From Flavobacteriales bacterium (GTDB lineage: Bacteria; Bacteroidota; Bacteroidia; Flavobacteriales_F; PHOS-HE28), in NCBI GenBank assembly GCA_016704485.1, contig JADJAA010000001.1, positions 1,554,824-1,618,823 on the forward strand: a stretch of DNA of 64,000 nucleotides, in the 5' to 3' direction. Within the stretch, counting starts at the first letter, position 1. The number at the start of each line of letters is the position of its first letter. The notes below the pieces were generated by a model. It was not told the DNA's origin. It made no database searches and worked only from the letters and a program-made list of their open reading frames with translations. This document shows positions 6,850 through 63,211 of the stretch, in pieces. The position numbers and the translations under genes are program-made.

Positions 6850-9003
6850 TTGAACGATCTTCGACCCGAACTAGCGCCCAATGTTACTAGCGCCCCACAA
6901 ACCCATGGATCCTGTCCTATGCGCACCTTAGAGGAAGATGCCTTGCGCTTGTTGCGGAGTTCGGTAGGGGATACCAAGGCCACCTTCAGGGAAGGTCAAC
7001 TGGAAGCCATCGTCGCCCTGGTCCGTGAGCGAAAGCGCTTGCTGGTGGTGCAATGTACCGGCTGGGGCAAGAGCAATGTGTATTTCATCAGTGCGAAGTT
7101 GCTGCGCGAAAAAGGGCATGGACCCACCGTTATCGTTAGTCCGCTATTGGCTTTGATGCGCAACCAATTGCAGGCCGCAGCGCGCATGGAGCTGAAGGCT
7201 ATCACCATCAACAGTGCCAACACGGATGAATGGGAGACGCTGCAAGAGCAGGTGGTATCCGGTGAAGCCGATGTGCTCCTGATCAGTCCGGAACGACTGG
7301 CCAACGAACGTTTTATCGCCGAGGTGCTGTTGCCCATCGCTGGACGCATCGGCATGCTCGTGGTGGACGAAGCGCATTGCATCAGCGATTGGGGGCACGA
7401 TTTCCGGCCCGACTATCGGCGCATCATCGCGATCCTGAAACAACTGCCTGCCAACCTACCGGTACTGGGTACAACCGCCACTGCCAACCAACGCGTGGTG
7501 GACGATCTGAAGGTGCAACTTGGCGACCTCACCATACAACGTGGGACCTTAGTGCGTGACAGTTTGATGCTCGATGCTGTGCAACTCCCCGACCAAGCCG
7601 CACGCCTCGCTTGGCGGACGCACTACCTGCCCCTGCTCCCCGGATCCGGTATCGTGTACACCCTTACCGTGCGCGATGCGGAGCGCGTTGCCGAATGGTT
7701 GCAACAGAACGGGATCGAAGCAAGGGCCTACCATGCCTCCGTCGTTGATACCGAAGATGGCGATCTGCGCGAGCGCTTGGAGCAGCAACTGCTCGATGGA
7801 AGCATCAAGGCCTTAGTTGCCACCACGGCACTCGGCATGGGCTACGACAAGCCCGACCTGGGTTTCGTGATCCACTTCCAAGCTCCCGGCTCCATCATCG
7901 GCTACTACCAACAAGTGGGGCGCGCCGGAAGGGCGATCGAGAAGGCCTACGGGATACTCCTACATGGCGAAGAAGATGCTGAGATCCATGCCTACTTTCA
8001 AGAGAACGCTTTCCCGAACGAGTCGAATGTGCTGCAGATACTGAAGACTTTAGAAGGTGGCAACGGTCTTTCCATCCGGCAACTGGAGCCGACCATGAAC
8101 CTGCGCTACGGGCAGTTGGAACAGGCCTTGAAATTCCTGAGCATGGAGGACCCTGCGCCGGTGGTGTTGCAGGACCATCTGTGGAAGCGCACACCGGTGG
8201 CCTACACCTTGGACCATGCGCACATCCAGCGCCTCATGGAACTACGAGAGCGCGAACGTGAGCAAGTTGTGGCCTACGTGCAACACACTGGCTGCCGCAT
8301 GGAATTCCTTCAACAGGCCTTGGATGATGTCGTGCATGCACCCTGTGGACATTGCGCCAATTGCTTGGACAAGCACTTCAAGGCGGACATGCCCCCAGCG
8401 GAAGTGGCCCGCGCGGCTACCTTTCTGCGCAGCGCGGAGATGGTACTCACCTGTCCGAAGGCACTACCCGCAGGTGGCTTGGATGCGCTCGACATTAAGG
8501 GCAACATACCGCTGGAGTTGCGCCCGCAGCCCGGAAGGATCCTCTGCCGTTGGGGCGACTCCGGTTGGGGCAAGTTGGTGGCGCAACAGAAGCACGACGG
8601 ACACTTCAAAGACGAACTCGTCCACGCCCTTGCCGAAATGGTGAACGAGCGCTGGTGTCCGGATCCGCCCCCAATGTGGGTGACCTGTGTGCCCTCCCTT
8701 CGCCATCCGGAATTGGTTCCCGATCTTGCACGCCGATTGGCCGCCAAGTTGGAACTTCCGTTCCACAACGTGGTGGAAAAGACCCGCCAGAACGAGGCGC
8801 AGAAAGCCATGCAGAACCGCTACCACCAGTGCCATAACCTCGATGGCGCCTTCGCCATCGGTACGGTGCCCGAAGGGCCTGTGCTATTGGTGGACGATGT
8901 GGTGGATTCCGGCTGGACCATTGCCATTCTTTCGGCACAACTGCTACAGGCCGGTTGTACCTTGGTGTACCCTATCGCACTAGCAAGCACCTCCCATACC
9001 TGA
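6850..9003 (+). CDS. RecQ-family helicase fused to a C-terminal ComFC-like phosphoribosyltransferase domain
   Basis: Walker A VVQCTGWGKSNVYF. RecQ DEAH box VVDEAHCISDWGHDFRPDY. Motif VI QQVGRAGR. Zn-Cys cluster CRMEF...CGHCANC. C-terminal RYHQCHNLDGAFAI...VLLVDDVVDSGWTIA (ComF/PRPP-binding signature). Start is TTG 6850 or ATG 6919. Confidence 0.85.
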   Translation: MNDLRPELAPNVTSAPQTHGSCPMRTLEEDALRLLRSSVGDTKATFREGQLEAIVALVRERKRLLVVQCTGWGKSNVYFISAKLLREKGHGPTVIVSPLLALMRNQLQAAARMELKAITINSANTDEWETLQEQVVSGEADVLLISPERLANERFIAEVLLPIAGRIGMLVVDEAHCISDWGHDFRPDYRRIIAILKQLPANLPVLGTTATANQRVVDDLKVQLGDLTIQRGTLVRDSLMLDAVQLPDQAARLAWRTHYLPLLPGSGIVYTLTVRDAERVAEWLQQNGIEARAYHASVVDTEDGDLRERLEQQLLDGSIKALVATTALGMGYDKPDLGFVIHFQAPGSIIGYYQQVGRAGRAIEKAYGILLHGEEDAEIHAYFQENAFPNESNVLQILKTLEGGNGLSIRQLEPTMNLRYGQLEQALKFLSMEDPAPVVLQDHLWKRTPVAYTLDHAHIQRLMELREREREQVVAYVQHTGCRMEFLQQALDDVVHAPCGHCANCLDKHFKADMPPAEVARAATFLRSAEMVLTCPKALPAGGLDALDIKGNIPLELRPQPGRILCRWGDSGWGKLVAQQKHDGHFKDELVHALAEMVNERWCPDPPPMWVTCVPSLRHPELVPDLARRLAAKLELPFHNVVEKTRQNEAQKAMQNRYHQCHNLDGAFAIGTVPEGPVLLVDDVVDSGWTIAILSAQLLQAGCTLVYPIALASTSHT

Positions 9004-10223
9004 TGGACCTAAGACCGGACGACCAAGCCACCTTGCTGCTTACCGCGCACCTGCCCGGAGGCAACGCCGTGCAGCCGCTCTCCACCGGCGAATGGTCACG
9101 GTTCAGTGCGTGGTTGCTTGCACATGAGCACACACCGGGCGACCTGTTCATTGGCGATCCGAAGCACACGCTGGCCACCTTTCAGGACAAGACCATCACC
9201 CTGGAGCGTATCGCACCGTTGCTGGATCGCGGTTTCCAAGTTGCCTTGTTGCTGGAGAAGTGGCAACGTGCAGGGCTCTGGGTGATCACGCGCTCCTCGC
9301 CGGATTATCCGCAACGGCTCACCACCATGCTCGGCGACCAAGCGCCGCCCTTGTTCCATGGTGCAGGCGACCGCCGCAAGCTGGAGACCAAGGCACTTGC
9401 TGTGATCGGATCGCGCAACGCCGCCGAGGCCGATCTGCACTTCGCCCGCCAACTGGGCCACGCCGCCGCACAACAGGGCTGGTCCATCGTAAGCGGTGGT
9501 GCGCGCGGTGTGGACGAAGCCTCCATGCGCGGTGCCATCGAAGCCAGTGGTACCGTGATCGGGGTGGTGGCCGATAGCCTGCTGAAGATGGCCACCAGTC
9601 ACAAGTACCGCGATGCCATCCAACGCAGTGACATCGTCCTGCTCTGTGCCTCGCACCCCGAAGTGGGTTTCTCCGGGGCCAATGCCATGGCGCGCAACAA
9701 GTATGTGTACTGCCTAAGCCGTGCGGCCGTGGTGGTGTGCTCCGATGCCAACAAGGGAGGTACCTGGGCCGGCGCCACTGAGGACCTGAAGAAGAAGTGG
9801 GTGCCCGTGTGGGTGAAGCACCATCCCGATCCACGCAGCGGCAACCGCGCACTGGTGGATCGTGGCGCACAGCCTTTGCCCGATTCCGATCCGCATGCCT
9901 TGGACATGGAGGACCTCGCCAAGGGTAAACTCTCCAGCGCTCAACTCTTCGAACTGCCCATTGCCTCCGACGTTGCCGCCGTATACCAAGCCTCCGGAAC
10001 CACGGCCCCGAAAGAGCTCACCGAAGCGGATGAGATGGAAGCCATCCTCAAGGCACTTGCCACTCCCATGACCGTGAAGGCCCTTGCCAAACATATCGCC
10101 ATGGACGAGGCCCGCATCAGCCACCTGCTGGACCAATTGGTACACCTGCACAAAGTGGAACCACCAACTGGCCGATCACGCAGCTACGCCCTAGCGGGTC
10201 CGGATCTTTTTAGTGGGGAGTGA
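9003..10223 (+). CDS. DprA/Smf-like (SLOG Rossmann) protein with C-terminal winged-helix
   Basis: ATG 9003-9005 overlaps the upstream TGA (9001-9003) as TGATG. DprA core LAVIGSRNAAEADLHFARQLG...GWSIVSGGARGVDEASMRGAIEASGTVIGVVADSL...ARNKYVY. C-terminal MTVKALAKHIAMDEARISHLLDQLVHLHKV. Confidence 0.8.
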   Translation: MDLRPDDQATLLLTAHLPGGNAVQPLSTGEWSRFSAWLLAHEHTPGDLFIGDPKHTLATFQDKTITLERIAPLLDRGFQVALLLEKWQRAGLWVITRSSPDYPQRLTTMLGDQAPPLFHGAGDRRKLETKALAVIGSRNAAEADLHFARQLGHAAAQQGWSIVSGGARGVDEASMRGAIEASGTVIGVVADSLLKMATSHKYRDAIQRSDIVLLCASHPEVGFSGANAMARNKYVYCLSRAAVVVCSDANKGGTWAGATEDLKKKWVPVWVKHHPDPRSGNRALVDRGAQPLPDSDPHALDMEDLAKGKLSSAQLFELPIASDVAAVYQASGTTAPKELTEADEMEAILKALATPMTVKALAKHIAMDEARISHLLDQLVHLHKVEPPTGRSRSYALAGPDLFSGE

Positions 10224-10435: not shown

Positions 10436-10633
10436 TCAATAGTCATTATGTTCCAAGATCACCTCCGGCGATAGATCCCATACCATGCTCCCCACGTGGT
10501 AACTGAACCATGCGTTAAAGACTTTCCAGCTCCGGTCCACAGGCCAAGTATCCTCATCCGGGCAAGTGCCGAACAGTTCCATCTCGAAAATGAACGGAGC
10601 ATACGGCTTCACCACATCGGCAATGTCCTTCAC
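10436..10633 (-). CDS. Small hypothetical protein (65 aa) directly downstream of the giant helicase gene
   Basis: Same strand, 30 nt after the stop of 10664-15496. Acidic and Trp-rich, with no recognisable family. Confidence 0.4.
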   Translation of the reverse strand: MKDIADVVKPYAPFIFEMELFGTCPDEDTWPVDRSWKVFNAWFSYHVGSMVWDLSPEVILEHNDY

Positions 10634-10663
10634 GGTATTTGATGTTGACCAGCCTTTACCCTG

Positions 10664-13600
10664 TCAACCCAACGTGAACTGCACGCGAGGCAATACCACT
10701 TCATAGCTCTTATCCTTCTCCTTATCGTACCAATGCACAATGTATTCTGCCGTAGCGCCTGAAACACGATATCCCTCATTTGCGAAACGGGGTAGTGTCG
10801 AGTCAATGAACTTGCGCGCGTAGAGCAGCACATTGCCGTTCCCGGTGCCAAGACCAAGTGCACTTCCGTTCGTGAATTGTTTCTCATCCGGCACCATATT
10901 GGAGCCCGCAGAAAGGGATGTGATCCGGTCGGAGTTATATGAACACGATCCCAGGTTCACCTCCTTCATACCAAGCACGTATTCAAGTTTATTGGGCCGA
11001 GGGTATACCACCTCATTCGTTTCTCTGATCAACGAGGCATGTTTGTAGGTGGGAAGGAACTGATCATTCGTGTGGATCACTAATTGGTCCATTGATCTTG
11101 TGCAGGCCACATAGAGTAGGCGGAGGTCTTTGTCCTCCTCCATCGGGTAGTTCTTCTGGTATACGAACACGTTATTGAACTCCTTGCCCTTGCTCTTGTG
11201 CATGGTAGATACATGCACCACTCCTTTCTGTGGTTTCACGGCGTCGCTGATCCTGATCTCACGCACGAAAGCATCCCATTCTGATAGGTCATGTCGCCCT
11301 TGGTTCCCTTTCTTGAAGAGCGCAAGTAGGTCTTTCATGTCCGCCCGCAATGGATTCCCCTTGAGCCCTTCTATATATTCCTTAACGGCATTGTCCCAGA
11401 CCTCCTTGGGAATAACACCAATTCCTGGATGGCGTTCACGAACGAATTGGCCGAACGCTCGGACCTCGCGCAAGCGACCTACGGGGAAGTCATCCGAGCC
11501 ACCGATGTAGCGCGCCTTGACGCCATGTTGCTCCAGCATGGCCGTTGCCATGATCGCCTCATTGTTCGTGCGGGTCAATACACTTGTCGTGCCGGTGAGC
11601 GTCGACCGTGCGACGTCCTTTACCAGTCCTGTCAAATGATAGCCGCCGGAATATCGGACCACACGTTGCACTCCCGGCCGATCGTCATTTGCTACAAGTT
11701 CCTCACCATCTTTTATCCGGACTTTGATCTTGGAGGCAATATGATTCGTCAATCGAACGATCGTCTCCTTGCTCCGGTAATTCACAAGTAGGCTATGCGA
11801 TCGCGCCTTGAAGCGGGTTCGGAATTCCGACATGAATCTTGGCGATGCACCGCGCCATTCATAGATGTTCTGGTCGTCATCACCCACTGCGATGATGCGT
11901 GGTTTCTCTGCGGTCTCAGCAAGCATCTGGATCAGTTGCCATTGCTCCTGATCAACATCTTGGAATTCATCCAATACGATCACGCTTTTGTTCGCAATGG
12001 AGGTGACATCCACTTCGCCGGCATGGATAGCCGCCATGGTGCGGCTGATCACAGTTTCCGACCGGTCCAGATCGCCGAGCTGACCCATCAGTTCAAAACA
12101 CAAGCCATGGAATGTCGTGATCCGGATAAGGCCTCGATACTCCGGAACCATGGCATGGACGCGGTCGCGGAACTCCATTGCCGCAGCCTTCGAGAACGTG
12201 AGCATAAGGAATTGCTCAGGCTTCACATCCTCAATGAGCAGAAGGCTCGCCACCTTATGGACAAGGACCCGGGTCTTACCGCTCCCCGGACCCGCAGCAA
12301 CAAGGATCTGGTCCGTACTATCATTGACCACTCCCAATTGCTTCGTATCCAGATCCCCGAAAAGCTCAGTGAATCTGCTTCGGGTGATAGGCCGTGTGAT
12401 ATCGGTGCTGCGCTTCGGAAAGTATTTCTGCACGAAGACATCGTGCTCGAAGCGGAAATAGTCATCTACGAAAGATAACGCGGCCTGAACGCTTTCCATA
12501 CGGCGTGCTGCATACTCTCCCACCATATGGATCTGTTCCACCCTGTTCTGGTAATGATGCCTCAGGTTACCGTAATCCTCTTGGGTGTATTGCTTCCGTA
12601 CGTTCTGCTCCACGCGCTCCACATTCATCCGTTGGTACATGACCATGAACCCGTCCTGCAGGCTCAGTACATTCATGCCGTGTAGGAACAGCAATGCATC
12701 GGCAATGGCTTTCAGGTCATGCTCTTTGCCGAACATCCCTTCGGCCATTGCCGCTCTCAGCCCCAACAAGGAGAATTTCACACGCAATTCCTGCTTGGCA
12801 TCGTCAGCGAGCTTCGACGTATCGGGTACTAGTTTCTCAAGTTGTTCGAAACAAGCCAAGGCAAGTGCTTGGCGCGCTTCCACCTCCTTCCGTAGTTCTT
12901 CCGGGTCCTTCAATAGTGTTATCCTGTAGCTATCTGCTTGCCGGTCCAGGCGCTTGATCCCTACCAGTCTTCGTTTCTTCCAGATCAGGAACAGTGGCTT
13001 CAGATCCTCTATCCTGCTGTCCACCCCCTGGTCAAGAATGCCTTGGTTCAGCGCGCGATAGGTCACGGTCATTTCCTGTTCGGCCAGGAGCCCTACCAAT
13101 GCCTTTTCGGTATTCAGGATGCGTTGCAACCGTGCTTTGGAACCCGCACGTGGTCGACCATCCACATAGGCGGTCAGGTCCTGCTCATCGTTCAAGACCG
13201 CGATGTTCCGCAACAGTTGTACGGTCTCGATCACATCACGCAACTTCATTCCGAGATGACCCGCGACCACATCGACTTGCGATACACCCACTCCATCCTC
13301 ATCCGGTTTCACTAGTCGCTGCAATACCCGTATGCAATTCTCCTTCTGTTTTTCTGTTAATCCGGTATTGTCCCGTACTATCCGTAAGGCATCCTCCAGT
13401 CCTTTGACCATTAGACCGGTAGCGAAAACCTGCGGGGAGTTCAGCGTGCGCTTTATGTAGCCTCGGTCCTCTAGGGCTGCAAGGGATGCGGCCACGCGGT
13501 TCTGGATATCACGCATCTCTTCATCCCATCCCGCGGCTTTGGCAAGCTCCGAAGCCGAACGACTGATCTTGTCCCGGATCTTGGTCATGCCTTTTACCGC

Positions 13601-15496
13601 ACGCCATACCTGCTGTATCTCCTTTTGATTGAGCTTGGTCCGTTGAAGCAAGTGGAAATGGCCGCCCAGGTCATTCTCATTGTATAGGATGTAGCACTTG
13701 GCATCAATGTCTTTGTTGCGGCCAGCGCGACCGGCTTCCTGTACGTAGCTCTCCAGCGAACTGGAGATGTTGTAGTGGATGACGGATCGCACATCCTCCT
13801 TGTCCACACCCATACCGAAAGCCGAGGTTGCCACCATGACATCCACCTCACCATCCATGAAGCTCTCCTGATTGAGCTGCTTCTCTTCGCGCTCCATCTT
13901 GCCATGAAATCCGCGGACCGATATCCCGATCGCCTTGATGCGATCTACAAGCTCATCAACGCGTTTGGTCCGGCTTGCATACACGATCGCGGGTTTCTCA
14001 CAGGTGTTCAGCAGGCCCAATAACACACGTTGACGGGCTTCGGCAGTGGTGTCCTCCACAGGAAGGACCTCGTACTCCAGGTTCTCCCGCCGCGCTTGGC
14101 TTATATAGGGAATAAGGTCCAGACCAAGGCCATTCTTGAAATAGTTCCGGATGTCTTCCACCACTTGCGGCTTGGCGGTGGCAGTAAAACAGGATACGGG
14201 TATGGGCTTCTCGCGCCCAAGGTCGATCTGAAGCTGTTTCAGATAGGGCGCGATGTACAAGTAGTCCACCCTGAAATCATGCCCCCAACTGGAAAAGCAA
14301 TGGGCCTCATCTATAACGAACCGCGAGATCTGTCTCTTCTGCAGCAGACGGGAAAGCGTGGGAGAACGAAGCGTTTCCGGAGCGATATACAACAGGTGGA
14401 TCCCGCCATCCTCTACTTGCTTCAGGACTTCTTGCCGCTCCAATGGGGAAAGTAGTCCGCTCAGATGGGCCGCACGCACTATCTGGTGCCGATGTTCCAG
14501 CACCTCCACCTGATCTTTCATCAGCGAAACCAACGGCGAGATGACCACGGTGAGCGAACGGGTAAGCGCACCTTCCATTAGAGCAGGCAGCTGGAACGTG
14601 AGCGACTTGCCTCCGCCAGTGGGGAAGACGGTCAGGACCGACTCTCCGGCCAACGCTGAACCGACGGCCTTTTCCTGCACTCCAGCCTGGCTTTCACCGT
14701 CGAACAATCGGAAGTGATCATACCCGAAATACTCCTTCAGTCCGCGCTTTGCATCCATCCAGGTCGCACAGTACTCGCAGCCCGCATCATTACACTGTGC
14801 GAACCGCAGGTTATGCAGTACCTGTTGGGTAAAAGGCAAGCTATGTACGACCCAAGGGGGTAGGATGGATGCTTCATCGGTCGTGTCGATCAGGGCCAGC
14901 GCATGCGCGAGCTCTACAGGTCTATCAGTAGTAAAGCGTTGCAGCGGAGCAGAAGCGCAAATGAGGCCTGAGTAACGCGAGGTGATCAAGTCGGCTACGT
15001 CTGTCTTGTCCTGCTCATGTGCCGCAAGCTCGATCATGCCATCGTACCCTTCCTGTCCGGAAAGCAAACCGGCATAGACCGAACGCATGACAACAGGCAA
15101 ACAATTGAATGTACCTAAAAGTTCTTCCAATAGTTCGCGACACAGTTTTGCGTCACTGAGCGGATCGTTGTCGCCGTCCTCGTTGCGGATCTTGTAGCCC
15201 TTCACCAACTTGTGATAGGGCTTATTGGCGTACAGCAATGCACTCCAACACAAAGTATCCAAGAGCACCTTACCCTTTAATACATTCTGCCCCATGTGCT
15301 TCCGAAGCACAGGCGCATCATGGCCAACAAGGTTGTGCCCGGCGACAATGGTTGCCCTGTCTATCAGCTTCTTAAGTCCATCCAGCTTACGCTTGTGGAA
15401 TTCGCTGCTCCCGAGCACAGCTCCTACGTCCAGGAGTTTTTTACTCCGCTGATCTAACTCGAGATCCAGAATGAGGACCTTGTCCAGTGCGTTCAT
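10664..15496 (-). CDS. 1610-aa fusion: DnaQ-like 3'-5' exonuclease + RecQ helicase core + UvrD/PcrA-type SF1 helicase
   Basis: Exonuclease: LILDLELD...AGHNLVGHDAPVL. RecQ: FPTGGGKSLTFQLPAL, VIDEAHCFSSWGHDFRVDY, QEAGRAGR. UvrD: VAAGPGSGKTRVLVHKVASL, VLDEFQDVDQEQW, AVGDDDQNIYEWRGA, VSTMHKSKGKEFNNVFV, LLYVACTRS. The 4.8-kb frame is uninterrupted. Confidence 0.85.
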   Translation of the reverse strand: MNALDKVLILDLELDQRSKKLLDVGAVLGSSEFHKRKLDGLKKLIDRATIVAGHNLVGHDAPVLRKHMGQNVLKGKVLLDTLCWSALLYANKPYHKLVKGYKIRNEDGDNDPLSDAKLCRELLEELLGTFNCLPVVMRSVYAGLLSGQEGYDGMIELAAHEQDKTDVADLITSRYSGLICASAPLQRFTTDRPVELAHALALIDTTDEASILPPWVVHSLPFTQQVLHNLRFAQCNDAGCEYCATWMDAKRGLKEYFGYDHFRLFDGESQAGVQEKAVGSALAGESVLTVFPTGGGKSLTFQLPALMEGALTRSLTVVISPLVSLMKDQVEVLEHRHQIVRAAHLSGLLSPLERQEVLKQVEDGGIHLLYIAPETLRSPTLSRLLQKRQISRFVIDEAHCFSSWGHDFRVDYLYIAPYLKQLQIDLGREKPIPVSCFTATAKPQVVEDIRNYFKNGLGLDLIPYISQARRENLEYEVLPVEDTTAEARQRVLLGLLNTCEKPAIVYASRTKRVDELVDRIKAIGISVRGFHGKMEREEKQLNQESFMDGEVDVMVATSAFGMGVDKEDVRSVIHYNISSSLESYVQEAGRAGRNKDIDAKCYILYNENDLGGHFHLLQRTKLNQKEIQQVWRAVKGMTKIRDKISRSASELAKAAGWDEEMRDIQNRVAASLAALEDRGYIKRTLNSPQVFATGLMVKGLEDALRIVRDNTGLTEKQKENCIRVLQRLVKPDEDGVGVSQVDVVAGHLGMKLRDVIETVQLLRNIAVLNDEQDLTAYVDGRPRAGSKARLQRILNTEKALVGLLAEQEMTVTYRALNQGILDQGVDSRIEDLKPLFLIWKKRRLVGIKRLDRQADSYRITLLKDPEELRKEVEARQALALACFEQLEKLVPDTSKLADDAKQELRVKFSLLGLRAAMAEGMFGKEHDLKAIADALLFLHGMNVLSLQDGFMVMYQRMNVERVEQNVRKQYTQEDYGNLRHHYQNRVEQIHMVGEYAARRMESVQAALSFVDDYFRFEHDVFVQKYFPKRSTDITRPITRSRFTELFGDLDTKQLGVVNDSTDQILVAAGPGSGKTRVLVHKVASLLLIEDVKPEQFLMLTFSKAAAMEFRDRVHAMVPEYRGLIRITTFHGLCFELMGQLGDLDRSETVISRTMAAIHAGEVDVTSIANKSVIVLDEFQDVDQEQWQLIQMLAETAEKPRIIAVGDDDQNIYEWRGASPRFMSEFRTRFKARSHSLLVNYRSKETIVRLTNHIASKIKVRIKDGEELVANDDRPGVQRVVRYSGGYHLTGLVKDVARSTLTGTTSVLTRTNNEAIMATAMLEQHGVKARYIGGSDDFPVGRLREVRAFGQFVRERHPGIGVIPKEVWDNAVKEYIEGLKGNPLRADMKDLLALFKKGNQGRHDLSEWDAFVREIRISDAVKPQKGVVHVSTMHKSKGKEFNNVFVYQKNYPMEEDKDLRLLYVACTRSMDQLVIHTNDQFLPTYKHASLIRETNEVVYPRPNKLEYVLGMKEVNLGSCSYNSDRITSLSAGSNMVPDEKQFTNGSALGLGTGNGNVLLYARKFIDSTLPRFANEGYRVSGATAEYIVHWYDKEKDKSYEVVLPRVQFTLG

Positions 15497-15552
15497 TAGC
15501 TGGGCGCAATGGCGTGGTGGATGAAACGGGCTGCGGAAGAGCTATGCATGGA

Positions 15553-15696
15553 TCACAAATTCAACACTCCTTCAATAACCCGAAAACTCTCCAACCCACT
15601 TTCTAGATCTTCCACGACCTCGGTGGTGCATTCCGTGGTCTGCGCTTGAACCAGCGTAGAAAGAATTACAGTTAGGAAGAGTAGGAGAGTTCGCAT
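15553..15696 (-). CDS. Possible 47-aa secreted peptide (below the ORF-track size cut-off)
   Basis: Hand translation: MRTLLLFLTVILSTLVQAQTTECTTEVVEDLESGLESFRVIEGVLNL*. It has a signal-peptide-like N-terminus. It lies between the GmrSD-like gene and the giant helicase gene on the same strand. Confidence 0.3.
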   Translation of the reverse strand: MRTLLLFLTVILSTLVQAQTTECTTEVVEDLESGLESFRVIEGVLNL

Positions 15697-15719: not shown

Positions 15720-17519
15720 TTACAAGCCTTCGTAATAGCCCTTGATCTTTTGTGCCATCAGGTGTTTGCGTTCCTCCAAAAAGGTCTGGTAGCTTTTTAC
15801 ATCATAGTCGAAGATAGCTGTTGGGATGCAGTTCTCGCGCATGTTCTTGCGCAGGTCGGCCATGTTACGCAGACCACCGATGTCACCTTTGCCTTGCTCA
15901 AGCTTGTCCGCAACGGTCGTAAAGTATACCGCTGGCGTTTTGTCACCGATCTTGATGTTTCCGGGTTGGTCCATGTACACCAGATTGCTCACGCGATTGT
16001 ACAGACTGCGACCCAAGCCATTCTTCTTCAACAAGCTGCGGGGGAAGATGTGGTGTACATCTCCGCGTGTAAGCAACATGTCGTTCACGGTGAGGTGCCG
16101 ACTGAACAGACCATGGTCGTTCGCGTTGGCTTGGGCAGCTAGGAATACGCCGAAGAACGGACTGCTCATCACTGGGCTTTCCAAATGCCCTGGAAGTACA
16201 GAATTCCAGAACGCATCACTCAGGTCACCTGCTTCGATCTCGGCTAAGTAGTCGGAAGCATTGCGTTCGTTCAGCCGTTTGATGTCAAAGTCGAATTGGC
16301 TTTCGAAGCTGCCCGTTGCACGTTCGGTCAAGATGCTCATAACGTACCAACGGCGCACCAAGCTTTGTAATTCATTGCCTCGGTCCATTCCTTGACGACG
16401 CAAATGCAGGTACAAGAAATAGGCGAAGTTGATCGCGTTCTTACTGCGCATCAACTTGCTGCGCACGAAGCCTGCCGACCGAAGGATCAACGTGAAGAAC
16501 TTGAAGTCAGTCTCATTCATGAAGCGGGCCACACCAGCGTCCAACTGCTTGAAAGAATTTTCCATAATGGTCTCCTCGAACGTGCGGTTCACGAAATCGC
16601 GTCCACTAAGTAGGCTGACCAGGTCGCTCATTTTACCACGACCGAATTCCACACCGCTGGCAACACGCAACATATCCGTGTAGGCCGGGTCATAGAGATC
16701 TTCGGTTTCGCTGCGTAGCCACTTCATGTTCTTGAAGTGCTCCGTGGCTGCGAACTCGGGGTCGTTCTCCTTGATGTGCTCGTAGTACTGCGGCTCTTTG
16801 CTCAGGTGGCAGAAGTAATCGATGGCCTTGCGCAGAACCGGACCACCATGGTGCTCGTTGCTGGCGATCTTGCTCATGGCAAAGTCCGCTTGGCTCAATA
16901 CGACTCCTTTGCTGTTGATGCGGATGAAGATCTCCGTTACCGTCTCTATGTCCAGTTCGTGGTTCAGTTCGATCACGCCGATCTGCCGCTTGGCTAAATT
17001 GGCCAATTGCCCAAGGCTGCTCTCCACAAGCTCGGCATCTGCATCCGGGTTTGCTGCGGTGTATGCTTTGTTCAATTTGATCAAGCTGAAACCACTCCCA
17101 AAGAACACCGCGATATCCGGCAACCACGCCTTGTCCTTTTGGATGATGGGCGTTTGCACCTCGAACTTCTGGGTGATGGGATGGAACGCGATCTTGATCT
17201 TGATCCGCGCATAATCCTTGTCCACCACGTATTCATCCATTAAAGCAGCACGCAATGCTGTTATGCGTTGTTGCCCATCGATCAAGATCTTCTTGCCGCT
17301 GCCAATGCTGCCATCTTTCAAGCGCACATCCGGGTTCTTCCATGTAATAATGTAGCCCACTGGAAAACCTTGGTAGATGCTATCCATCAGATCGCGGACT
17401 TTGCTCTTATCCCAAACGAATGGGCGCTGGATCTCGGGTATCGCGATCTCTTTCTCTTTCACCCACGACAATAAACTTTCGATAAGCGGCTGTTGGATAC
17501 TGTATTTCTGTGTTTGCAT
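15720..17519 (-). CDS. GmrSD/BrxU-like DUF262-DUF1524 modification-dependent (type IV) restriction enzyme
   Basis: DUF262 N-terminus IPEIQRPFVWDKSKVRDLMDSIYQGFPVGYII and LIDGQQRITAL. C-terminal His-Me finger GDVHHIFPRSLL. Start is ATG 17519 (MQTQKY) or TTG 17534. Confidence 0.8.
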   Translation of the reverse strand: MQTQKYSIQQPLIESLLSWVKEKEIAIPEIQRPFVWDKSKVRDLMDSIYQGFPVGYIITWKNPDVRLKDGSIGSGKKILIDGQQRITALRAALMDEYVVDKDYARIKIKIAFHPITQKFEVQTPIIQKDKAWLPDIAVFFGSGFSLIKLNKAYTAANPDADAELVESSLGQLANLAKRQIGVIELNHELDIETVTEIFIRINSKGVVLSQADFAMSKIASNEHHGGPVLRKAIDYFCHLSKEPQYYEHIKENDPEFAATEHFKNMKWLRSETEDLYDPAYTDMLRVASGVEFGRGKMSDLVSLLSGRDFVNRTFEETIMENSFKQLDAGVARFMNETDFKFFTLILRSAGFVRSKLMRSKNAINFAYFLYLHLRRQGMDRGNELQSLVRRWYVMSILTERATGSFESQFDFDIKRLNERNASDYLAEIEAGDLSDAFWNSVLPGHLESPVMSSPFFGVFLAAQANANDHGLFSRHLTVNDMLLTRGDVHHIFPRSLLKKNGLGRSLYNRVSNLVYMDQPGNIKIGDKTPAVYFTTVADKLEQGKGDIGGLRNMADLRKNMRENCIPTAIFDYDVKSYQTFLEERKHLMAQKIKGYYEGL

Positions 17520-17620
17520 GATCGTGTTGAACAACCTATGTATTGTCCTTCGTGTGATTATTGTTCAGCGCTGTATCAGTTAGCTGCGTGGCGAAGATGC
17601 GCCTAAAGTATTTGTTCAGA

Positions 17621-20600
17621 TCAAGCACTGCGCTCACCCGGCTGTGCGTTCCCTTGCACCCACTCCACTACCGAGATGATCTTATCCTGATCATTCTCAT
17701 TCGGGAATAGGCCGAAGATCCCTTCTTGGTGTAGGTCCGTGAACGTTGAACCCGGCTCTGCGAGCATGCGTTTGTCGATCACGCCGTTCACCGTGAGGTG
17801 CCGAATGATGGAATCGATGAAGTGGATCTGCGTAGCACTGAAGATGGAGCCGGACAAGAATTCGCCGAAGGCTGCTTTTGCTGCGCCTTCATCAAGGCCG
17901 ATGATGCTGCGAATGAAATAGCCTAGTGGCCGTTCCTCGCCAAGTTCCTTCATCAAAGCCTCCTTCGTGCCGCGTTCGTCTCCATCGAACAGGATGCGTT
18001 CCAGTTCCACTAGCTCAGCGGTCGTGATCGGCTCATTGGTGTATAGTTTGTGAATGGTAAGCTGGTGTTTGTGCGAGCGGATGAACTCCTCTACACGCAT
18101 CCGATAGCTACGCATGGTGTAGCTACCTGGCATGGAGATGATATCCTCACCCTCGCTCACCAACTCATCTCTCAGGTCCGAGTATACCACTTTGCGTTCC
18201 TCGCGCGGTATCAAGCGCACTAGATCGCGCAATTGTTTTCGTGTGAATTCCAAGGCTTCCAGACCGAACACAGCGGCTCGTTGTTGTTGATCATTTGCGA
18301 CATCAAGAACTGCTTTGATCGCTGGATACCGCTCCTGCACTACGGGAATGTTGGAGAGCCGGGCAAGCTGTGTGGCGGTTGAGGCCAACGTGCGGAACAG
18401 GCGATCTACTGACGGCGCCTCTTGGGCCACAGCAATTTCCAGATCGAGCATAAGTAGGTCAAATCGTTTGGCCAGCTCGTCCTTGTCCGGTAGTTCGATC
18501 AAGTGACCAACGGTCTCGAACAGATCACTGATCCCGCTTTTTGATAACGCATTCCATGCGGTACGTTCACGGTAGTGATCGAGCACACGTTGCGCAGGAC
18601 GAATGCGCACGGTGTGCCGCAATTCCCAAAGTGCCTGGACCCAACTATGCGCACTATTCAAAAGCTCAACGCGTAGTGCTTGATCTTTTGGTACCTGATG
18701 GGCTGGTTCACGCAGTTGTTCACTAAGTAGGATAGTTGCTTCAAAGATCCGTTGCGATAGGCTGGGGGAGCGCACAGGTTCAATGCCTTCCGGCCGCAGG
18801 TTGAAGAAGCTGTAGTTGCCACAGAGATCGAAGATCCTGAAGTTCTCCTTGTGCTGGCCGGGACCGAACAGATCCGGGCATAAGCGTGTGCCGCGGCCAA
18901 CCATTTGCCAGAACTTGGACTTGCTATAGACCGGTTTAAAGAACACCAAGTTCACGATCTCAGGAATATCAATACCCGTATCCAACATATCCACACTCAC
19001 GGCGATCTGTGGATACCGGTCCTTATCACTGAAATTATCTATGATGCTCTGGGAGTATTGCTCCTTACTGTGTACCACCGACATGAAATGCCCACCGTAC
19101 TGCGGGAACTGATCTTCAAAACGGTTCTGTATGGCCCGGGCATGGTCTATGTTCCTTGCAAAGACAACGGTCTTGCCCAGCTTCTCACCACCTTCCACTT
19201 TGATCCCGTTCTCCATCACATAGGCCAACACCTGATCGATGGTGTTCGAGTTGAAGAGCCAGTTATTGATCGCGGGCGCTCCGATCTCTTCGGGTATATT
19301 CCCTTGGTCGTCCCGGAAGGTCTCTTCGTAATGTGTCCTATCGCTCTCACTCAGGTCATCGTAGCGGATACCGCGTTGCAGAAAGCCGAAGTCCACTGCT
19401 TTGCCAATGGGCGGCACCAGAAAACGATCGGCTACGGCCTGCCCTAATTCATAGAACGATGTCGGGTTATGCTCTTCGCAATCGAACAAGGCATAGGTAT
19501 CCCGATCCCCTTGGTCGTGTGGTGTTGCAGTAAGGCCGACCAACAAGGAATCGAAATAGGTGAAAATAGCACCGTACCGATCGTACACTGAGCGATGCGC
19601 CTCATCCACAATGATCAGATCGAAGTGACCGACACCGAAGGTCTTCACATCATCACTCCGCACTTGGTCCACGCGGTTCATTACCGTGGGGTAGGTGCTG
19701 AAGACCACCCGTGCGCTTTCATCATAGCGCTGTTTGGTGAGATCCAATGTGGTAACATTCGGCAGGTTCTTCTCAAAGGCCCGTTTTGCCTGTGTGACCA
19801 AGGCATTGCGATCAGCGAGAAAGAGCACACGCTTCGCCCAATTCGCTTTCAGTAGAAGGTCCACTAACGCGGCAACGGTACGCGTCTTGCCAGCCCCAGT
19901 GGCCATTACGATCAATGCTTTTCGCTTAAGACCGCGCATGCCATCTTCATCCACCCAACTTTCTGCAACCCGCTTGATCGCTTGATGTTGGTAATAGCGT
20001 TCCACGATCTGCTCATCGATCGGCACATGCCGAATGTTCACACGACCGATACGCCGATCAACGACCCGTTGCAATTCGTCCCGCGTGTAAATGCCCTGTA
20101 CAGCGCGTGGACCATAAAAGGTGTCATCCCAGATCCACGTATCGAAACCGTTGCTATAGAATATCACCGGGCGCTGTCCGGTCATGCGTTCCAGGCAATC
20201 AGCGTAAAGGCTTGCTTGCACACGGCCTTGTTGGGCATCGTGGGTGGTGCGCTTGGCCTCTACTACGGCCAGCGGTTTACCATCTGCACCCCAGAGCACG
20301 TAATCTACCTTGCCGTTGCCGTTGGGATTGGTGCTCAATGGCATCCCTGTTACCGGGTATTCGATCACGTTGGATGCGGCAGGGTCCCAGCCTGCTTCGC
20401 GCAACAGTTCATCAATGAAGAGTAACCGTGTATCCGCCTCCGAATATTCAGAAGCAGGTATGGGTATGTTCTCATGGCGCTCCTTGCGCTCCTGGATCGC
20501 TGCCAGGCGTTCTGCCAATATCTGCTTTTCTCCTTCTAATTTCAACCGTTGCTCGCGCTCGGTCTCCATCGCTACACGTTGCGCTTCATAACGCTCCTGT

Positions 20601-21079
20601 AACTGTTGAAGCTCCGCGCTGTTCGGAACTTCCTTCACTTTCACTTGTACTATGAGTGCCTCCTCTTGGAATGTTCCTACCTCGATGTCGAATGCGCTGT
20701 ACGTACGACCCATCCATTTCAAGAACCGGAACAAGAGGCGCAATGAGGCTACGCTCTGGCTCTCCACCACCTTCTTATCATGCGCAGCGGCATTGCCGGT
20801 ACGCCGGATGTACTGCAGGTCGATGTAGATGGGTGGTGGTATCAGTACCCGGAAGGACCGTTCATCCATCAACGCGCTCAACTGGCTGTTGTAAGGGCGC
20901 TGTAGGTCACTGTCGTTATCATACAGCCAGTGCACGGTACGTTCCAACGCACGGCGGGCATACACGGCAGAGGCGATCGGTGCGGCCAAGGCATACCGCT
21001 CCGCGTCCATGGCCTCCTTCGCAATGGAGGGCCACTCTTCAACGAGGAAGCGGAAGTTGCTCGGGGTGCTCAACGACAT
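17621..21079 (-). CDS. hsdR: Type I restriction enzyme R subunit with N-terminal DUF4145/HEPN-like domain and EcoEI_R_C-type C-terminus
   Basis: N-terminus YARRALERTVHWLY...YIRRTGNAAAHDK. Nuclease VDYVLWGADGKPLAVVEAKRT. Helicase MATGAGKTRT, IIVDEAHRS, LTATP. C-terminal FIRSIIGLDEGAAKAAFGEFL... Confidence 0.9.
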   Translation of the reverse strand: MSLSTPSNFRFLVEEWPSIAKEAMDAERYALAAPIASAVYARRALERTVHWLYDNDSDLQRPYNSQLSALMDERSFRVLIPPPIYIDLQYIRRTGNAAAHDKKVVESQSVASLRLLFRFLKWMGRTYSAFDIEVGTFQEEALIVQVKVKEVPNSAELQQLQERYEAQRVAMETEREQRLKLEGEKQILAERLAAIQERKERHENIPIPASEYSEADTRLLFIDELLREAGWDPAASNVIEYPVTGMPLSTNPNGNGKVDYVLWGADGKPLAVVEAKRTTHDAQQGRVQASLYADCLERMTGQRPVIFYSNGFDTWIWDDTFYGPRAVQGIYTRDELQRVVDRRIGRVNIRHVPIDEQIVERYYQHQAIKRVAESWVDEDGMRGLKRKALIVMATGAGKTRTVAALVDLLLKANWAKRVLFLADRNALVTQAKRAFEKNLPNVTTLDLTKQRYDESARVVFSTYPTVMNRVDQVRSDDVKTFGVGHFDLIIVDEAHRSVYDRYGAIFTYFDSLLVGLTATPHDQGDRDTYALFDCEEHNPTSFYELGQAVADRFLVPPIGKAVDFGFLQRGIRYDDLSESDRTHYEETFRDDQGNIPEEIGAPAINNWLFNSNTIDQVLAYVMENGIKVEGGEKLGKTVVFARNIDHARAIQNRFEDQFPQYGGHFMSVVHSKEQYSQSIIDNFSDKDRYPQIAVSVDMLDTGIDIPEIVNLVFFKPVYSKSKFWQMVGRGTRLCPDLFGPGQHKENFRIFDLCGNYSFFNLRPEGIEPVRSPSLSQRIFEATILLSEQLREPAHQVPKDQALRVELLNSAHSWVQALWELRHTVRIRPAQRVLDHYRERTAWNALSKSGISDLFETVGHLIELPDKDELAKRFDLLMLDLEIAVAQEAPSVDRLFRTLASTATQLARLSNIPVVQERYPAIKAVLDVANDQQQRAAVFGLEALEFTRKQLRDLVRLIPREERKVVYSDLRDELVSEGEDIISMPGSYTMRSYRMRVEEFIRSHKHQLTIHKLYTNEPITTAELVELERILFDGDERGTKEALMKELGEERPLGYFIRSIIGLDEGAAKAAFGEFLSGSIFSATQIHFIDSIIRHLTVNGVIDKRMLAEPGSTFTDLHQEGIFGLFPNENDQDKIISVVEWVQGNAQPGERSA

Positions 21080-21273
21080 GGAGGCGCAATTGACGATATT
21101 CTAAGCACTTGTACAATTACAAGATGCGAATAAGTCGAGCCTATGATGTGCGGCTTGTGATGGTAACTGCCGCGTGTGGCCCTTTACGGCTCTAAAATAC
21201 ATGTGGATACTTCAGAACCGGTCTTCTTGCTGCTAAGAGAATGCTAATTCCTCTGAAGCACTACATTGCGGAC

Positions 21274-23375
21274 ATGTGCACCCACACACGCCTGCTATTA
21301 GTTGCGATCGCCATTTTTGGTCGTAGGGCTATGCACGGCGCAACAAGATGGACCAACCGAGGAGGAGCAGCCAACAATTATCACGGCGGAACAACTGCAG
21401 GACTTTAATTCGGTAGTGCCCGGCATGGGTCGACAGATCCCGGGAATATACTTGTCCAACTACGGGCTTCTGTGTTACCACTTTGGGGATGATGGCACAT
21501 TCGCATCGCGCGACTTGAATGATTCCGGTTGGGTCGCAGCCGGTTCATGGTATGCGCCCATCACGTTGCCAAAGGAACAATTGGACACTGCGCAAGCCCT
21601 GTGGGTGCGGTACCATCTTCTCTGCGACAGTTCCCTGCGCGGTAGCCCATTGACACTAAGTTTGGGATCCATTGCCGGTATTGAGATCTTTTTGAACGGC
21701 CATCGGTTGGTGCACGTCCGGGAATTGCCGCCGGTTGTTCATGATCTTGATCAACCAATTTGGGACACGCTGCGGCGCTTTACCCTACCGATCACATTCG
21801 CGTGCCAAGGCGAACCAGAAGTGCTCGCTATTCGGATAGATCCGGCAAGGAATGGAATTCCCTACCCCACTTTGCACTATACGAACTTCGCCTACAACGT
21901 ACAGCTGTCCGCGATGCACTATGGTGTCTTCATCGGGGTCAACGCCATCATCTTTTGCTCGCCTTGGTCCTCTGGTCTTTGGACCGGAATGATAAGCAGT
22001 GGTGGCTACTGGCCCTGCTGGCCTTCGTTACAGGATCAGGGTATGCGCCAAGTTGACCAGTGAGATGGGCTTGTTGGGTTTGCCGTGGCCCACCATCCAG
22101 GTCATTGGCATTATTGACAAGATCCTCCTTCTATGGCCTATGTATGTGCTTATCATGGTCTTGTGGCGCATGCTAGGTGGGTTATCAAGTCGGCGCGCCT
22201 TTTGGCTCACCTTCGGTGTCTTGTTCGTTTCGGCAACCAGCGCTGGCCGCTTGTACTTTTTCGGGAAGATCTCCTGGTCATTTTCGGAGATCACGGGGGA
22301 ATACAGCATAGATGCAGGTTTGTCCGATGATCAGTGGCCACTTTTGGTCGCACTGGTGGTTGGTGCGGTACTGCGCTATTCCATAGCGCTCTGGTTCGCG
22401 ATCGAATTGATCCGACTTGGCATTCGCCTGGTGCGTAAGAAGGGTTTCGGACGTTGGATCGGGGCAGGGGCGCTTGTGTCCAGTCTGTTGAGTTTCCTCT
22501 TGACGTGCTTCGGCCTGGTCACTGAAATACCATCTACGACATGGCTCACACTTTCCGATTATCTCGCCTATGTTGCTGTGCCGGTTTCAGTCGTCATTTA
22601 TCTGGCCGTCACTGCCGCTCAAAACAACAAGCTGGTAGCGCGTCAACGGGATGATCTTGATCGCGAGGTGGACGACCGTACCGCCGAACTTGTAGCGGAG
22701 AAACAAGCGGTGTTGCGCGAGAAAGAACGCAGCGATGAACTACTCCTCAACATCCTGCCATCCGAAGTGGCGGAAGAACTAAAAGCCAACGGTTCGGCAA
22801 AGGCGCGGGACTTCGATCCCGCCACCATCCTGTTCACCGACTTCAAAGGCTTCACGGAGCTATCCGTGCAATTAAGTGCTCAGGATCTGGTGGCCGAGAT
22901 CAATACGTGTTTCGAGGCGTTCGATGGGATAATTTCCCGGTACGGTGTGGAGAAGATCAAGACCATTGGCGATGCTTACATGGCGGCAGGTGGCGTGCCT
23001 GATCCTCTGCGCGGATCACCGGCAGGTGTTGTAGAGGCCGCGTTGGAGATGCAGGAATTCATGGTCAGGTACAAAGCGCAACGAACAGCCTTGAACAAAC
23101 CGGCCTTCGAGATGCGTCTCGGTGTTCACACCGGCCCAGTGGTGGCGGGCATCGTGGGTGTGAAGAAGTTCCAGTACGATATCTGGGGCGACACCGTGAA
23201 CACGGCCAGCCGCATGGAGAGCAATAGCGAAGTGGGCCAAGTAAACATCTCGCAGAGCACCTATGAACTGGTGAAGAACGTGCCGGGACTTGCCTTCACA
23301 TCGCGAGGCAAAATACCAGTGAAAGGGAAAGGAGAGCTGGAAATGTACTTCGTAAAGAGAGGGCCGGTCGCATAG
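21274..23375 (+). pseudogene. 7TMR-DISM-type class III adenylate/guanylate cyclase with a broken reading frame (at least 3 shifts)
   Basis: Track ORFs 21302-22063 (extracellular 7TMR-DISMED2-like domain), 21760-22056 and 21999-23375 (TM helices plus cyclase domain IKTIGDAYMAAGG...GVKKFQYDIWGDTVNTASRME) occupy three frames. The sensible protein path is: signal peptide MCTHTRLLLVAIAIF (ATG 21274, frame 1); LVVGLCTAQQ... (frame 2, shift at a T5 run near 21313); ...GVFIGVNAIIF then LLALVLWSLDRNDKQWWLLALLAFVTG (shift near 21950); then KLTSEMGLLGLPWP... (shift near 22045). Confidence 0.6.
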
Positions 23376-23388
23376 CCATTTCCGATCC

Positions 23389-23460
23389 CTACTCCCCCCA
23401 AAACGCCCCCTGCAGCAAAAGCCCGAACAAGTCCTCGCTCCGGCGTAGGTTCGCAGTGGA
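23389..23460 (-). pseudogene. Orphan 3' end of an hsdS gene (about 23 codons plus stop)
   Basis: Hand translation STANLRRSEDLFGLLLQGAFWGE*. The intact hsdS C-terminus is AASLHQSEGLFGSLLQGAFRGELGN*. 52 of 63 nt are identical to 24315-24377 in a hand alignment. Confidence 0.7.
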
Positions 23461-23476
23461 ACACCGGTAGTGCTGT

Positions 23477-24274: not shown

Positions 24275-24302
24275 TATGTCCGTGCTGCGTGATCCTCTTC
24301 CG

Positions 24303-30909: not shown

Positions 30910-30971
30910 GCAACGGGGGTCAAAGTAAGCGGTGGAGGGTTATGGTGTAGATGTGTTTGCAGGTTATGATC

Positions 30972-32234: not shown

Positions 32235-32343
32235 TGGTCCTCGCCACCAAGGGTCTATATGGTTGGATAATCGCTCAACCAACGAACTTCCCTATGGCAA
32301 CGGACCAAAAGTCCCGGTCACCTGTGCAGTCTATCTGCACAGT

Positions 32344-36426: not shown

Positions 36427-36434
36427 TGAAGAGC

Positions 36435-38822: not shown

Positions 38823-38823
38823 C

Positions 38824-56727: not shown

Positions 56728-56731
56728 CTGA

Positions 56732-57897: not shown

Positions 57898-57926
57898 GCG
57901 GAGCCGTCGAAAATAGGTGATCCGGT

Positions 57927-61219: not shown

Positions 61220-61262
61220 GGGCGTATTAAAATGGGGTGCAAAGGTCGCGAAATTCGCGGTA

Positions 61263-62105: not shown

Positions 62106-62206
62106 CCCGGTACCAACGTTCGTAGCCCGGAATTGGTATGTCCTAGCTAGCGAGCGCGAAGGTAATCTGGATCCGCAACCTCTGAGTCCTTCTACTGACC
62201 TACATA

Positions 62207-63109: not shown

Positions 63110-63211
63110 CCGTTGGTCGTTGGGTTCCGTCCAAAGATATTGCAGTTGGGTGTATTCCCATTTCGCGTGTTGCGAACATGCTTACATCCAAGAATAAGTT
63201 CAAGGTGCGTG

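Follow-up and report, generated by a model that had tools for sequence, protein, structure and literature searches.

A conserved fusion of an exonuclease-like domain with RecQ-type and UvrD-type helicase cores, encoded in a Bacteroidota defence island

Two helicase motors of different superfamilies and an exonuclease-like domain meet in one predicted polypeptide of a Flavobacteriales bacterium: is this arrangement real, how widespread is it, and what might such a protein do? The gene in question occupies 10664..15496 on the reverse strand of the window, by which we mean the whole stretch of 64,000 nucleotides that was analysed (assembly GCA_016704485.1, contig JADJAA010000001.1, positions 1,554,824 to 1,618,823). 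The window is Bacteroidota chromosome: it encodes the T9SS protein PorG, Por_Secre_tail proteins, BamA, and NAD kinase. The gene is a single ATG-started open reading frame (ORF) of 1610 amino acids (aa) without interruption; the chance of 1610 stop-free codons is about 1e-34, from (61/64)^1610. An earlier account of this DNA, made from the letters alone (the sequence-only reading), had placed an exonuclease-like domain, a RecQ motor of helicase superfamily 2 (SF2) and a UvrD motor of superfamily 1 (SF1) in one frame, and had left the stretch between the motors and the tail of the protein without assignment. The uninterrupted ORF and the matches to Pfam and NCBIfam models agree with this account. 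The motifs it quoted are present (ILDLELD at aa 9-15, GHNLVGHD at aa 53-60), and the two unassigned parts measure about 405 aa (641-1045) and about 130 aa (1481-1610). The triple fusion of exonuclease, RecQ, and UvrD modules is real and conserved.

Domain organisation of the triple fusion

All parts of the gene are given here from the reverse strand. The first motor, a RecQ-family SF2 helicase core (aa 256-640; 13577..14731), is matched by the Pfam families DEAD (273-448) and Helicase_C (495-594) and by the NCBIfam model recQ_fam (TIGR00614), with 283.8 bits against a cutoff of 219.8. Its core motifs are readily discerned: PTGGGKS (I, with the Walker A lysine K297); SPLVSLMKDQ (Ia); DEAHC (II); SSWGHDFR in the aromatic loop; TATA (III); and QEAGRAGR (VI). 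Conservation was assessed in an alignment of 25 homologs whose identity to the query is 44-77%. All 25 sequences keep motifs I, Ia, II, III, V, and VI, and the aromatic-rich loop that follows motif II, reading CFSSWGHDFRVDY (aa 400-412), has five invariant residues (W404, G405, D407, F408, and R409). The recQ equivalog model (TIGR01389) scores 312.8 bits, far under its cutoff of 640.2, and the DpdF model (NF041063) 224 bits versus a cutoff of 550. Neither the zinc-binding subdomain of the RQC region (RecQ_Zn_bind, PF16124) nor the HRDC domain has a Pfam match in the 1610-aa protein, and its cysteine cluster lies N-terminal to the RecQ motor, unlike the zinc subdomain of canonical RecQ. By these sequence criteria, the first motor is assigned to the RecQ family (SF2) and set apart from canonical RecQ.

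The second motor, a UvrD/PcrA-type SF1A helicase core (aa 1046-1480; 11057..12361), is matched by the Pfam family UvrD-helicase (PF00580) from aa 1050 onwards with 140.3 bits (cutoff 23) and by UvrD_C (PF13361) up to aa 1477 with 62.5 bits (cutoff 25.6); AAA_19 and UvrD_C_2 match as well. The motifs are GPGSGKT (I, with the Walker A lysine K1074), DEFQD (II), GDDDQNIY (III), NYRS (IV), TMHKSKGKEF (V), and YVACTRS (VI), and all 25 homologs keep them in the form GPGSGKT, DEFQD, GDDDQ, NYRS, TMHKxKGKEF, and V(A/G)C(T/S)R. Scores with the equivalog models fall far from the cutoffs: uvrD, 132.4 versus 1144 bits; pcrA, 132 versus 911; rep, 108 versus 951. The motor thus classifies as a UvrD-type SF1A core that is not an ortholog of UvrD, PcrA, or Rep. 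Since all signature motifs of both motors are kept, both must be under selection to stay active.

The N-terminal 255 residues have no Pfam match even at E<=10, and a profile search of the Protein Data Bank (PDB) returned only a TREX1-like exonuclease, collinear but non-significant (E 0.48). An AlphaFold2 (AF2) model of this region, built from a 13-sequence alignment, is confident (pLDDT 87.5, pTM 0.86), and Foldseek matches it to exonuclease domains of the DnaQ fold. In the model, aa 1-130 (15107..15496) adopt an RNase H-like DnaQ fold as found in 3'-5' exonucleases with a DEDD active site; aa 131-255 (14732..15106) form a helical module that carries an invariant C180 and the cysteine cluster mentioned above (CxxxxCxxC: C235, C240, and C243). 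The two parts together superpose on the N-terminal region of Staphylococcus aureus DinG (SaDinG) in a long Foldseek alignment, and for this reason aa 1-255 are likened to the N-terminal part of those DinG proteins of Gram-positive bacteria in which an exonuclease is fused to the helicase.

The acidic residues of the active site can be located in all three exonuclease motifs: D11 and E13 in ExoI; H54-N55...H59-D60 in ExoII; and D115 in ExoIII. In the 25 aligned homologs D11, E13, and D60 are invariant, D115 is conserved in at least 90%, and H54 is conserved. The general base of ExoIII is replaced: the histidine of DEDDh enzymes, five residues before D115 (position 110), is Asn here and Asn or Ser across the family, while the position of the DEDDy tyrosine, four residues before D115, holds Asn or Asp across the family. 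In SaDinG the exchange H149A, or alanine at any one of the DEDD residues, nearly abolished activity (PMC12345164). Because the histidine or tyrosine is replaced, nuclease activity of the triple fusion is not assured, and its N-terminal domain would be either an exonuclease that uses another base or a module that binds 3' ends. Invariant H59, Y94, and H95 are candidates for an alternative general base.

The linker between the motors (aa 641-1045; 12362..13576) has no significant match in Pfam (E<=10), among PDB sequences, or in PADLOC. Its AF2 model is of medium quality overall (pLDDT 70.5), with values of 85-93 in the middle; three to four units of the order helix-helix-helix-strand-strand can be made out, followed by long helices. 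This C-terminal helical segment holds the invariant stretches QIHxVGEYA (988-996) and VDDYF (1010-1014). Nearly all Foldseek matches of the linker are to winged-helix domains, each weak (E 0.05-0.3) but concordant: regulators of the MarR, PadR, and OhrR types; winged-helix domains of ORC and Cdt1; the tandem winged-helix protein RPC62; and the ROQ domain of Roquin. With moderate confidence, the linker is thus modelled as a tandem winged-helix DNA-binding array. The tail (aa 1481-1610; 10667..11056) likewise has no match in Pfam (E<=10), PDB sequences, or PADLOC, and a profile search with it in a collection of 5.8 billion protein clusters returned only fragments of this same helicase family. 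Six of its residues are invariant (L1515, Y1576, Y1585, V1587, W1589, and P1603), and these searches mark the tail of about 130 aa as specific to the triple-fusion family.

Distribution and genomic surroundings of the family

The protein collection holds at least 120 clusters of full-length homologs (about 1600 aa, 44-77% identity). The named ones are all listed as 'RecQ family ATP-dependent DNA helicase', and most of the clusters come from Flavobacteriales and other Bacteroidota. Among species representatives of the GTDB at least 564 relatives were confirmed, a count that may include ordinary RecQ genes because one of the search patterns was a general RecQ motif. Carriers in culture include Cellulophaga fucicola, Algibacter pacificus, and Pontibacter, and outside Bacteroidota Moraxella bovis and M. 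caprae; E. coli genomes gave no match to the triple-fusion protein. Most copies of the gene are chromosomal. Relatives with 28-32% identity, full-length or nearly so, are encoded by complete plasmids from Aliarcobacter, Sulfitobacter, Cereibacter, Rhizobium, Paracoccus, Allochromatium, Thiothrix, and Deinococcus. The full-length protein was found in none of 50,697 phage genomes and on only about 13 of the 2.9 million contigs of IMG/VR. A literature search, thin on subscription journals, turned up no paper that describes a fusion of RecQ with UvrD, be it with or without an exonuclease. None of the models in PADLOC 2.0 covers the 1610-aa protein over its full length, and the N-terminus, linker, and tail match nothing there. 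The triple-fusion family is large, conserved, and, as far as the literature searched goes, uncharacterised.

Within Bacteroidota, copies from Kordia are 70% identical to each other, those from Pontibacter 78%, and those from different genera of Flavobacteriaceae about 56%. Copies from the same genus, 70-78% identical, nevertheless have different flanks, so that no synteny is conserved even within a genus. Missing synteny as proof of mobility was given less weight, since such identities also fit vertical descent combined with genome rearrangement. The only archaeal match, a copy in a metagenome-assembled genome (MAG) assigned to the Methanomethylophilaceae (locus L089), was considered as a case of transfer between domains of life and rejected: its helicase is 86.6% identical to that of Alistipes sp. 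CAG:435 (L087), three neighbours are common to both at about 90% identity, and the contig is probably mis-binned bacterial (Bacteroidales) DNA. The Deinococcus plasmid match, considered as a split two-gene version, is not informative: it consists of one 1301-aa coding sequence annotated as UvrD and a short upstream ORF. Plasmid p.A of Cereibacter sphaeroides (L099, 5959..11088) encodes a variant of 1709 aa, as do related alphaproteobacterial plasmids; its alignment with the query, at about 30% identity, goes no further than about aa 1275, and its C-terminal third is diverged or different. This variant may represent a distinct subfamily.

The sequence-only reading had put the gene in a defence island and had called it self-contained; both statements hold. 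In the window, as in several other genomes, the gene lies in a dense defence island, here with PsyrTA on one side and GmrSD plus a type I restriction-modification (RM) region on the other. The PsyrT gene (RecQ-like helicase with a PRTase domain) and the PsyrA gene (DprA/SLOG-like) span 6850..10223 on the forward strand, match PADLOC models over their full length (952 and 415 bits), share a 49-nt overlap, and run convergently to the triple-fusion gene. Directly upstream of the latter is a type IV restriction-like gene with a GmrSD_N (DUF262) domain (15720..17534, reverse strand), followed by the type I RM region with HsdR, HsdS, and HsdM (17621..27004, reverse strand), past which come further clusters of defence-like genes. 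Across 89 homolog loci the immediate neighbours vary in length, strand, and spacing, and the commonest neighbour family within ±4 genes occurs at only four of them. With no neighbour family conserved, the triple-fusion gene is a stand-alone unit.

Annotation of each gene within ±10 kb by Pfam was carried out for 11 contexts, the window included; seven of these hold known defence genes, in what is a small, non-random sample without a matched background. Besides the window, they feature: McrBC, an MmeI-type enzyme, and DarT; CBASS, type I RM, and GmrSD; type II RM systems and HNH; type I RM, AbiEii, and a reverse transcriptase; a further type I RM; and a type IIG-like RM, GmrSD, and a PLD nuclease. 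Among the 148 genes within ±2 positions at 37 further loci, the commonest families include GmrSD_N, McrBC, WYL, and Fic, each at two to three loci. On IMG/VR contigs from integrated elements, the gene is accompanied by serine and tyrosine recombinases, methylases, RE_AlwI, RhuM, AbiEi, and TOTE primase. This link to defence genes is suggestive, not proven. Genes of the GmrSD type stand within one or two genes of homologs at no fewer than three other loci, L006 (6056..7771), L101 (6456..8957), and L050 (7028..8698) among them; most loci lack such a gene. As an obligate partner GmrSD was rejected: it is adjacent at only about four of some 100 loci.

Candidate roles of the fusion protein

Several known systems resemble the triple fusion in part. 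The canonical bacterial helicases RecQ and UvrD/PcrA/Rep have cores from the same two families; there they are separate proteins, whereas here the cores are fused with extra domains. WRN, like the triple fusion, joins an exonuclease of the DnaQ family to a RecQ helicase. It has an RQC domain with zinc-binding and winged-helix parts, an HRDC domain, and a DEDDy site. In the triple fusion, by contrast, RecQ_Zn_bind and HRDC have no match, the site is neither of the h nor of the y type, and a second motor, of SF1, follows. The machines RecBCD, AddAB, and AdnAB also bring together two helicase-type modules and a nuclease for processing DNA. They are built from several subunits, with motors from SF1, whose polarities are opposite in RecBCD, and with nucleases of the PD-(D/E)XK type. 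Unlike these, the triple fusion is one chain that combines a DEDD fold with an SF2 and an SF1A motor, both of predicted 3'-5' polarity. The DinG proteins of Gram-positive bacteria (S. aureus, B. subtilis) share with the triple fusion an N-terminal exonuclease (DEDDh in DinG) ahead of an SF2 helicase, but their motor is single, of the XPD type, and runs 5'-3', where the triple fusion has RecQ plus a second motor. Also, SaDinG has the full DEDDh set (H149), where the triple-fusion family has Asn or Ser. In SaDinG the N-terminal DEDD domain cooperates with the helicase to digest unwound DNA, and the enzyme is inhibited by ATP (PMC12345164). Hna is a single-gene 3'-5' exonuclease whose substrate is single-stranded DNA and which is gated by ATP and by the phage protein that binds single-stranded DNA (SSB) (10.1101/2025.11.12.688083). 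As a helicase-nuclease encoded by one gene, it provides a model for a stand-alone immunity enzyme. It differs in having a C-terminal PD-(D/E)XK nuclease and one SF2 motor, where the triple fusion has an N-terminal DEDD fold and two motors; a PD-(D/E)XK domain has no Pfam match in the 1610-aa protein, and no sequence relationship to Hna appears among the PADLOC matches listed.

Matches of the protein to PADLOC defence models cover only the generic cores: GajB, up to 171 bits, and helicases associated with defence-associated reverse transcriptases (DRT; UvrD-like models), in the UvrD core; DpdF, 327 bits, and PsyrT, 241 bits, in the RecQ core. The PsyrT match is confined to aa 272-637 (240.6 bits), while the genuine PsyrT next door reaches 951.8 bits. 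GajB models match in two to three fragments only, and no Nhi model is among the best 25 PADLOC matches, be it for the whole protein or for the UvrD segment. The flanking genes are PsyrA and the GmrSD-like gene and not GajA (ATPase-TOPRIM, OLD-type). Nor does the triple-fusion gene bring along what the helicases of such systems need as an obligate partner or domain, be it GajA, a reverse transcriptase, the dpd cluster, or PsyrA together with the PRTase domain. The sequence-only reading had pointed to GajB and Nhi: for GajB a generic similarity of helicase domains is left of this link, seen in fragments and with no adjoining GajA partner, and for Nhi the likeness is probably of the same generic kind.

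Is the triple fusion, then, an immune protein? The best-supported view, over which to us the scales are evenly poised, is that this stand-alone DNA-processing enzyme, a single polypeptide, makes up with its one gene a defence against DNA that invades the cell, from phage or plasmid. This view draws on the fused and intact motors, the conserved acidic residues, the lack of a partner gene, and the frequent neighbourhood of defence and integration modules; defence by a single helicase-nuclease protein has its precedent in Hna (10.1101/2025.11.12.688083). A 'self-contained DNA-degrading machine', as the sequence-only reading had it, fits the first half of the phrase, in that no neighbour is conserved; 'degrading' is an overstatement given the replaced general base. 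In our proposed scheme, the winged-helix array would hold the enzyme at a junction of single- and double-stranded DNA, on duplex that adjoins a gap or 3' tail or a branched intermediate of replication. Judging by their families, the two motors should both move 3'->5'; they would use ATP to unwind the DNA and to strip bound proteins from it, probably one behind the other on a single strand or each on its own arm of a branched molecule. A bipolar pair of the RecB/RecD type is not envisaged, since motors of the same polarity cannot both drive forward on the opposite strands of a fork. The N-terminal DEDD site might then receive or capture the trailing 3' end and trim it 3'->5', by analogy with SaDinG and WRN. 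Self DNA could plausibly be spared through gating by the ATP level or by a phage protein, as in Hna and SaDinG. More tentatively, as a possibility that we rate somewhat short of even, the protein would be the first representative of an immune system that consists of one gene, is widespread, and has so far had no name: a natural dual-motor enzyme (SF2 RecQ plus SF1 UvrD) with a non-canonical DEDD domain, for end-binding or as an exonuclease, that recognises replication or recombination intermediates of invading DNA and destroys or disables them.

Several observations weigh against a role in defence. The 11 annotated contexts come without a background rate of defence genes, and four of them are housekeeping, ambiguous, or free of recognisable defence genes; the housekeeping ones contain ribosomal proteins, PEP carboxylase with glutamate synthase, or histidine biosynthesis. 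Within ±2 genes, at the 37 further loci, most neighbours are ordinary genes. The identity of 70-78% within genera would suit long vertical residence in Bacteroidota, as expected of a maintenance enzyme. The exonuclease domain lacks the canonical His or Tyr, which leaves degradation unproven, and how two motors of the same predicted polarity work jointly has not been worked out. The case for defence is built from sequence, structure models, and gene context. A serious rival, though one that we rate well below even, is an accessory genome-maintenance enzyme of Bacteroidota, similar to WRN or DinG, that works on stalled forks, gaps, and recombination intermediates. RecQ would unwind, the UvrD-type motor would strip RecA or other proteins, and the exonuclease would trim 3' ends, the location in a defence island reflecting merely that islands are permissive sites of insertion. 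RecQ, UvrD, and the DinG-type exonuclease are indeed classical repair modules; the catalytic motifs and the length of about 1600 aa are strongly conserved across phyla; identities broadly track taxonomy, as in Kordia and Pontibacter; and the housekeeping surroundings of some copies agree with it. A deletion mutant of SaDinG, too, was more sensitive in phenotypic tests on mitomycin C-induced damage (PMC12345164). The defence genes within ±10 kb in seven of 11 contexts speak against maintenance, however, as do the absence of conserved synteny within genera and the copies on plasmids and integrated elements of distant phyla. Moreover, scores under the canonical RecQ and UvrD equivalog cutoffs indicate that the protein is not a housekeeping copy of either helicase, and the RQC zinc and HRDC domains were not found.

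The copies on plasmids and integrated elements bring up yet another role, namely cargo that serves large plasmids, integrative and conjugative elements (ICEs), or prophages in replication, establishment, recombination, or countering host nucleases. On the Aliarcobacter plasmid pACIB the gene is directly beside parA/parB and rep/dnaB genes, and in a Bacteroides record it is near genes for ParA/ParG and SSB; megaplasmids of Cereibacter, Rhizobium, Paracoccus, Sulfitobacter, and Deinococcus carry it, and on IMG/VR contigs it is next to the serine and tyrosine recombinases. We nonetheless regard service to mobile elements as improbable, in view of the empty search of phage genomes, the handful of viral contigs, and the chromosomal location of most copies. 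In addition, defence cargo on mobile elements would give the same pattern, so that this evidence does not separate service to the element from defence.

If the triple fusion is a defence enzyme, it adds a large single-gene system that crosses phyla to the helicase-nuclease class of bacterial immunity, and it does so with a gene that is especially abundant in Bacteroidota, a phylum whose defence repertoire has been little studied experimentally. Such an immune system would work with two helicases of the same polarity and of different superfamilies in one chain, an arrangement without a characterised precedent. Whatever its role, no report came to our notice in which intact motors of the RecQ and UvrD types are naturally and covalently joined to an exonuclease fold. 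The fusion allows direct study of the cooperation between two 3'-5' motors, each from its own superfamily, on a single DNA substrate, and it bears on what becomes of a DEDD fold without its His or Tyr base: one that still cuts, or one turned into a sensor of 3' ends.

Small ORFs and other genes of the window

A 65-aa ORF with a GTG start (10436..10633, reverse strand) lies 30 nt downstream of the helicase gene and in the same direction, as the sequence-only reading had noted. It had been taken there for a possible partner or immunity factor, which it is not by the present data. An exhaustive phmmer search found 142 relatives (best E 1.2e-10; median length 116 aa), and the ORF aligns only to about residues 55-110 of relatives of about 115 aa. 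The family has no Pfam match. None of 91 loci with helicase homologs has a relative of the ORF beside the helicase gene, homologs of 75-77% identity included; the closest homologs are followed downstream by ORFs of 166 and 260 aa, which are related neither to the 65-aa ORF nor to one another. The alignments identify the ORF as the 3' remnant of a gene of about 115 aa from an unnamed family unrelated to the helicase. The segment 10634..10666 (reverse strand) consists of the TGA stop of the helicase gene and ten sense codons in frame up to the 65-aa ORF. Read-through into this ORF was considered and rejected, because all homologs stop at the same C-terminal end; the shared frame is probably a coincidence.

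On the other side, a 47-aa ORF (15552..15695, reverse strand) with an N-terminus resembling a signal peptide (MRTLLLFLTVILSTLVQAQ...) lies within the 223 nt that separate the GmrSD-like gene from the helicase gene. It was rejected as a conserved upstream gene, having no relatives in more than 100 homolog loci. A scan for sigma-70 promoters and terminators gave matches no commoner than in shuffled sequence, with a consensus that is unsuited to Bacteroidota.

The remainder of the variable region is varied. Between hsdR and hsdS/hsdM, at 21302..23375 on the forward strand, is a gene for a 458-aa protein with an adenylate/guanylate cyclase domain and HNOBA, preceded and overlapped by a 253-aa ORF without Pfam match; the pair may be a cyclic-nucleotide (Pycsar-like) module. 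Four co-directional genes at 27018..33354 (reverse strand) make up an unclassified cluster that encodes a protein of 423 aa, an 898-aa protein with N6_Mtase and HATPase_c, a 436-aa radical SAM/B12-binding protein, and a 336-aa WYL and WCX regulator. At 35458..40638 (reverse strand) the gene of an HNH protein (322 aa) adjoins that of an AAA_21/SMC_N ATPase (795 aa), a pair with a resemblance to Septu, and a 604-aa amidohydrolase-domain protein follows. The stretch from 34 to 42 kb has a GC content of 0.44-0.48, lower than the 0.52-0.58 found elsewhere in the window. A transposase of the IS1182 family (50712..52367, reverse strand) lies close to where the variable region ends on the right, and from about 55.9 kb (55900..64000) core genes of Bacteroidota take over, among them those for NAD kinase, PorG, and BamA.

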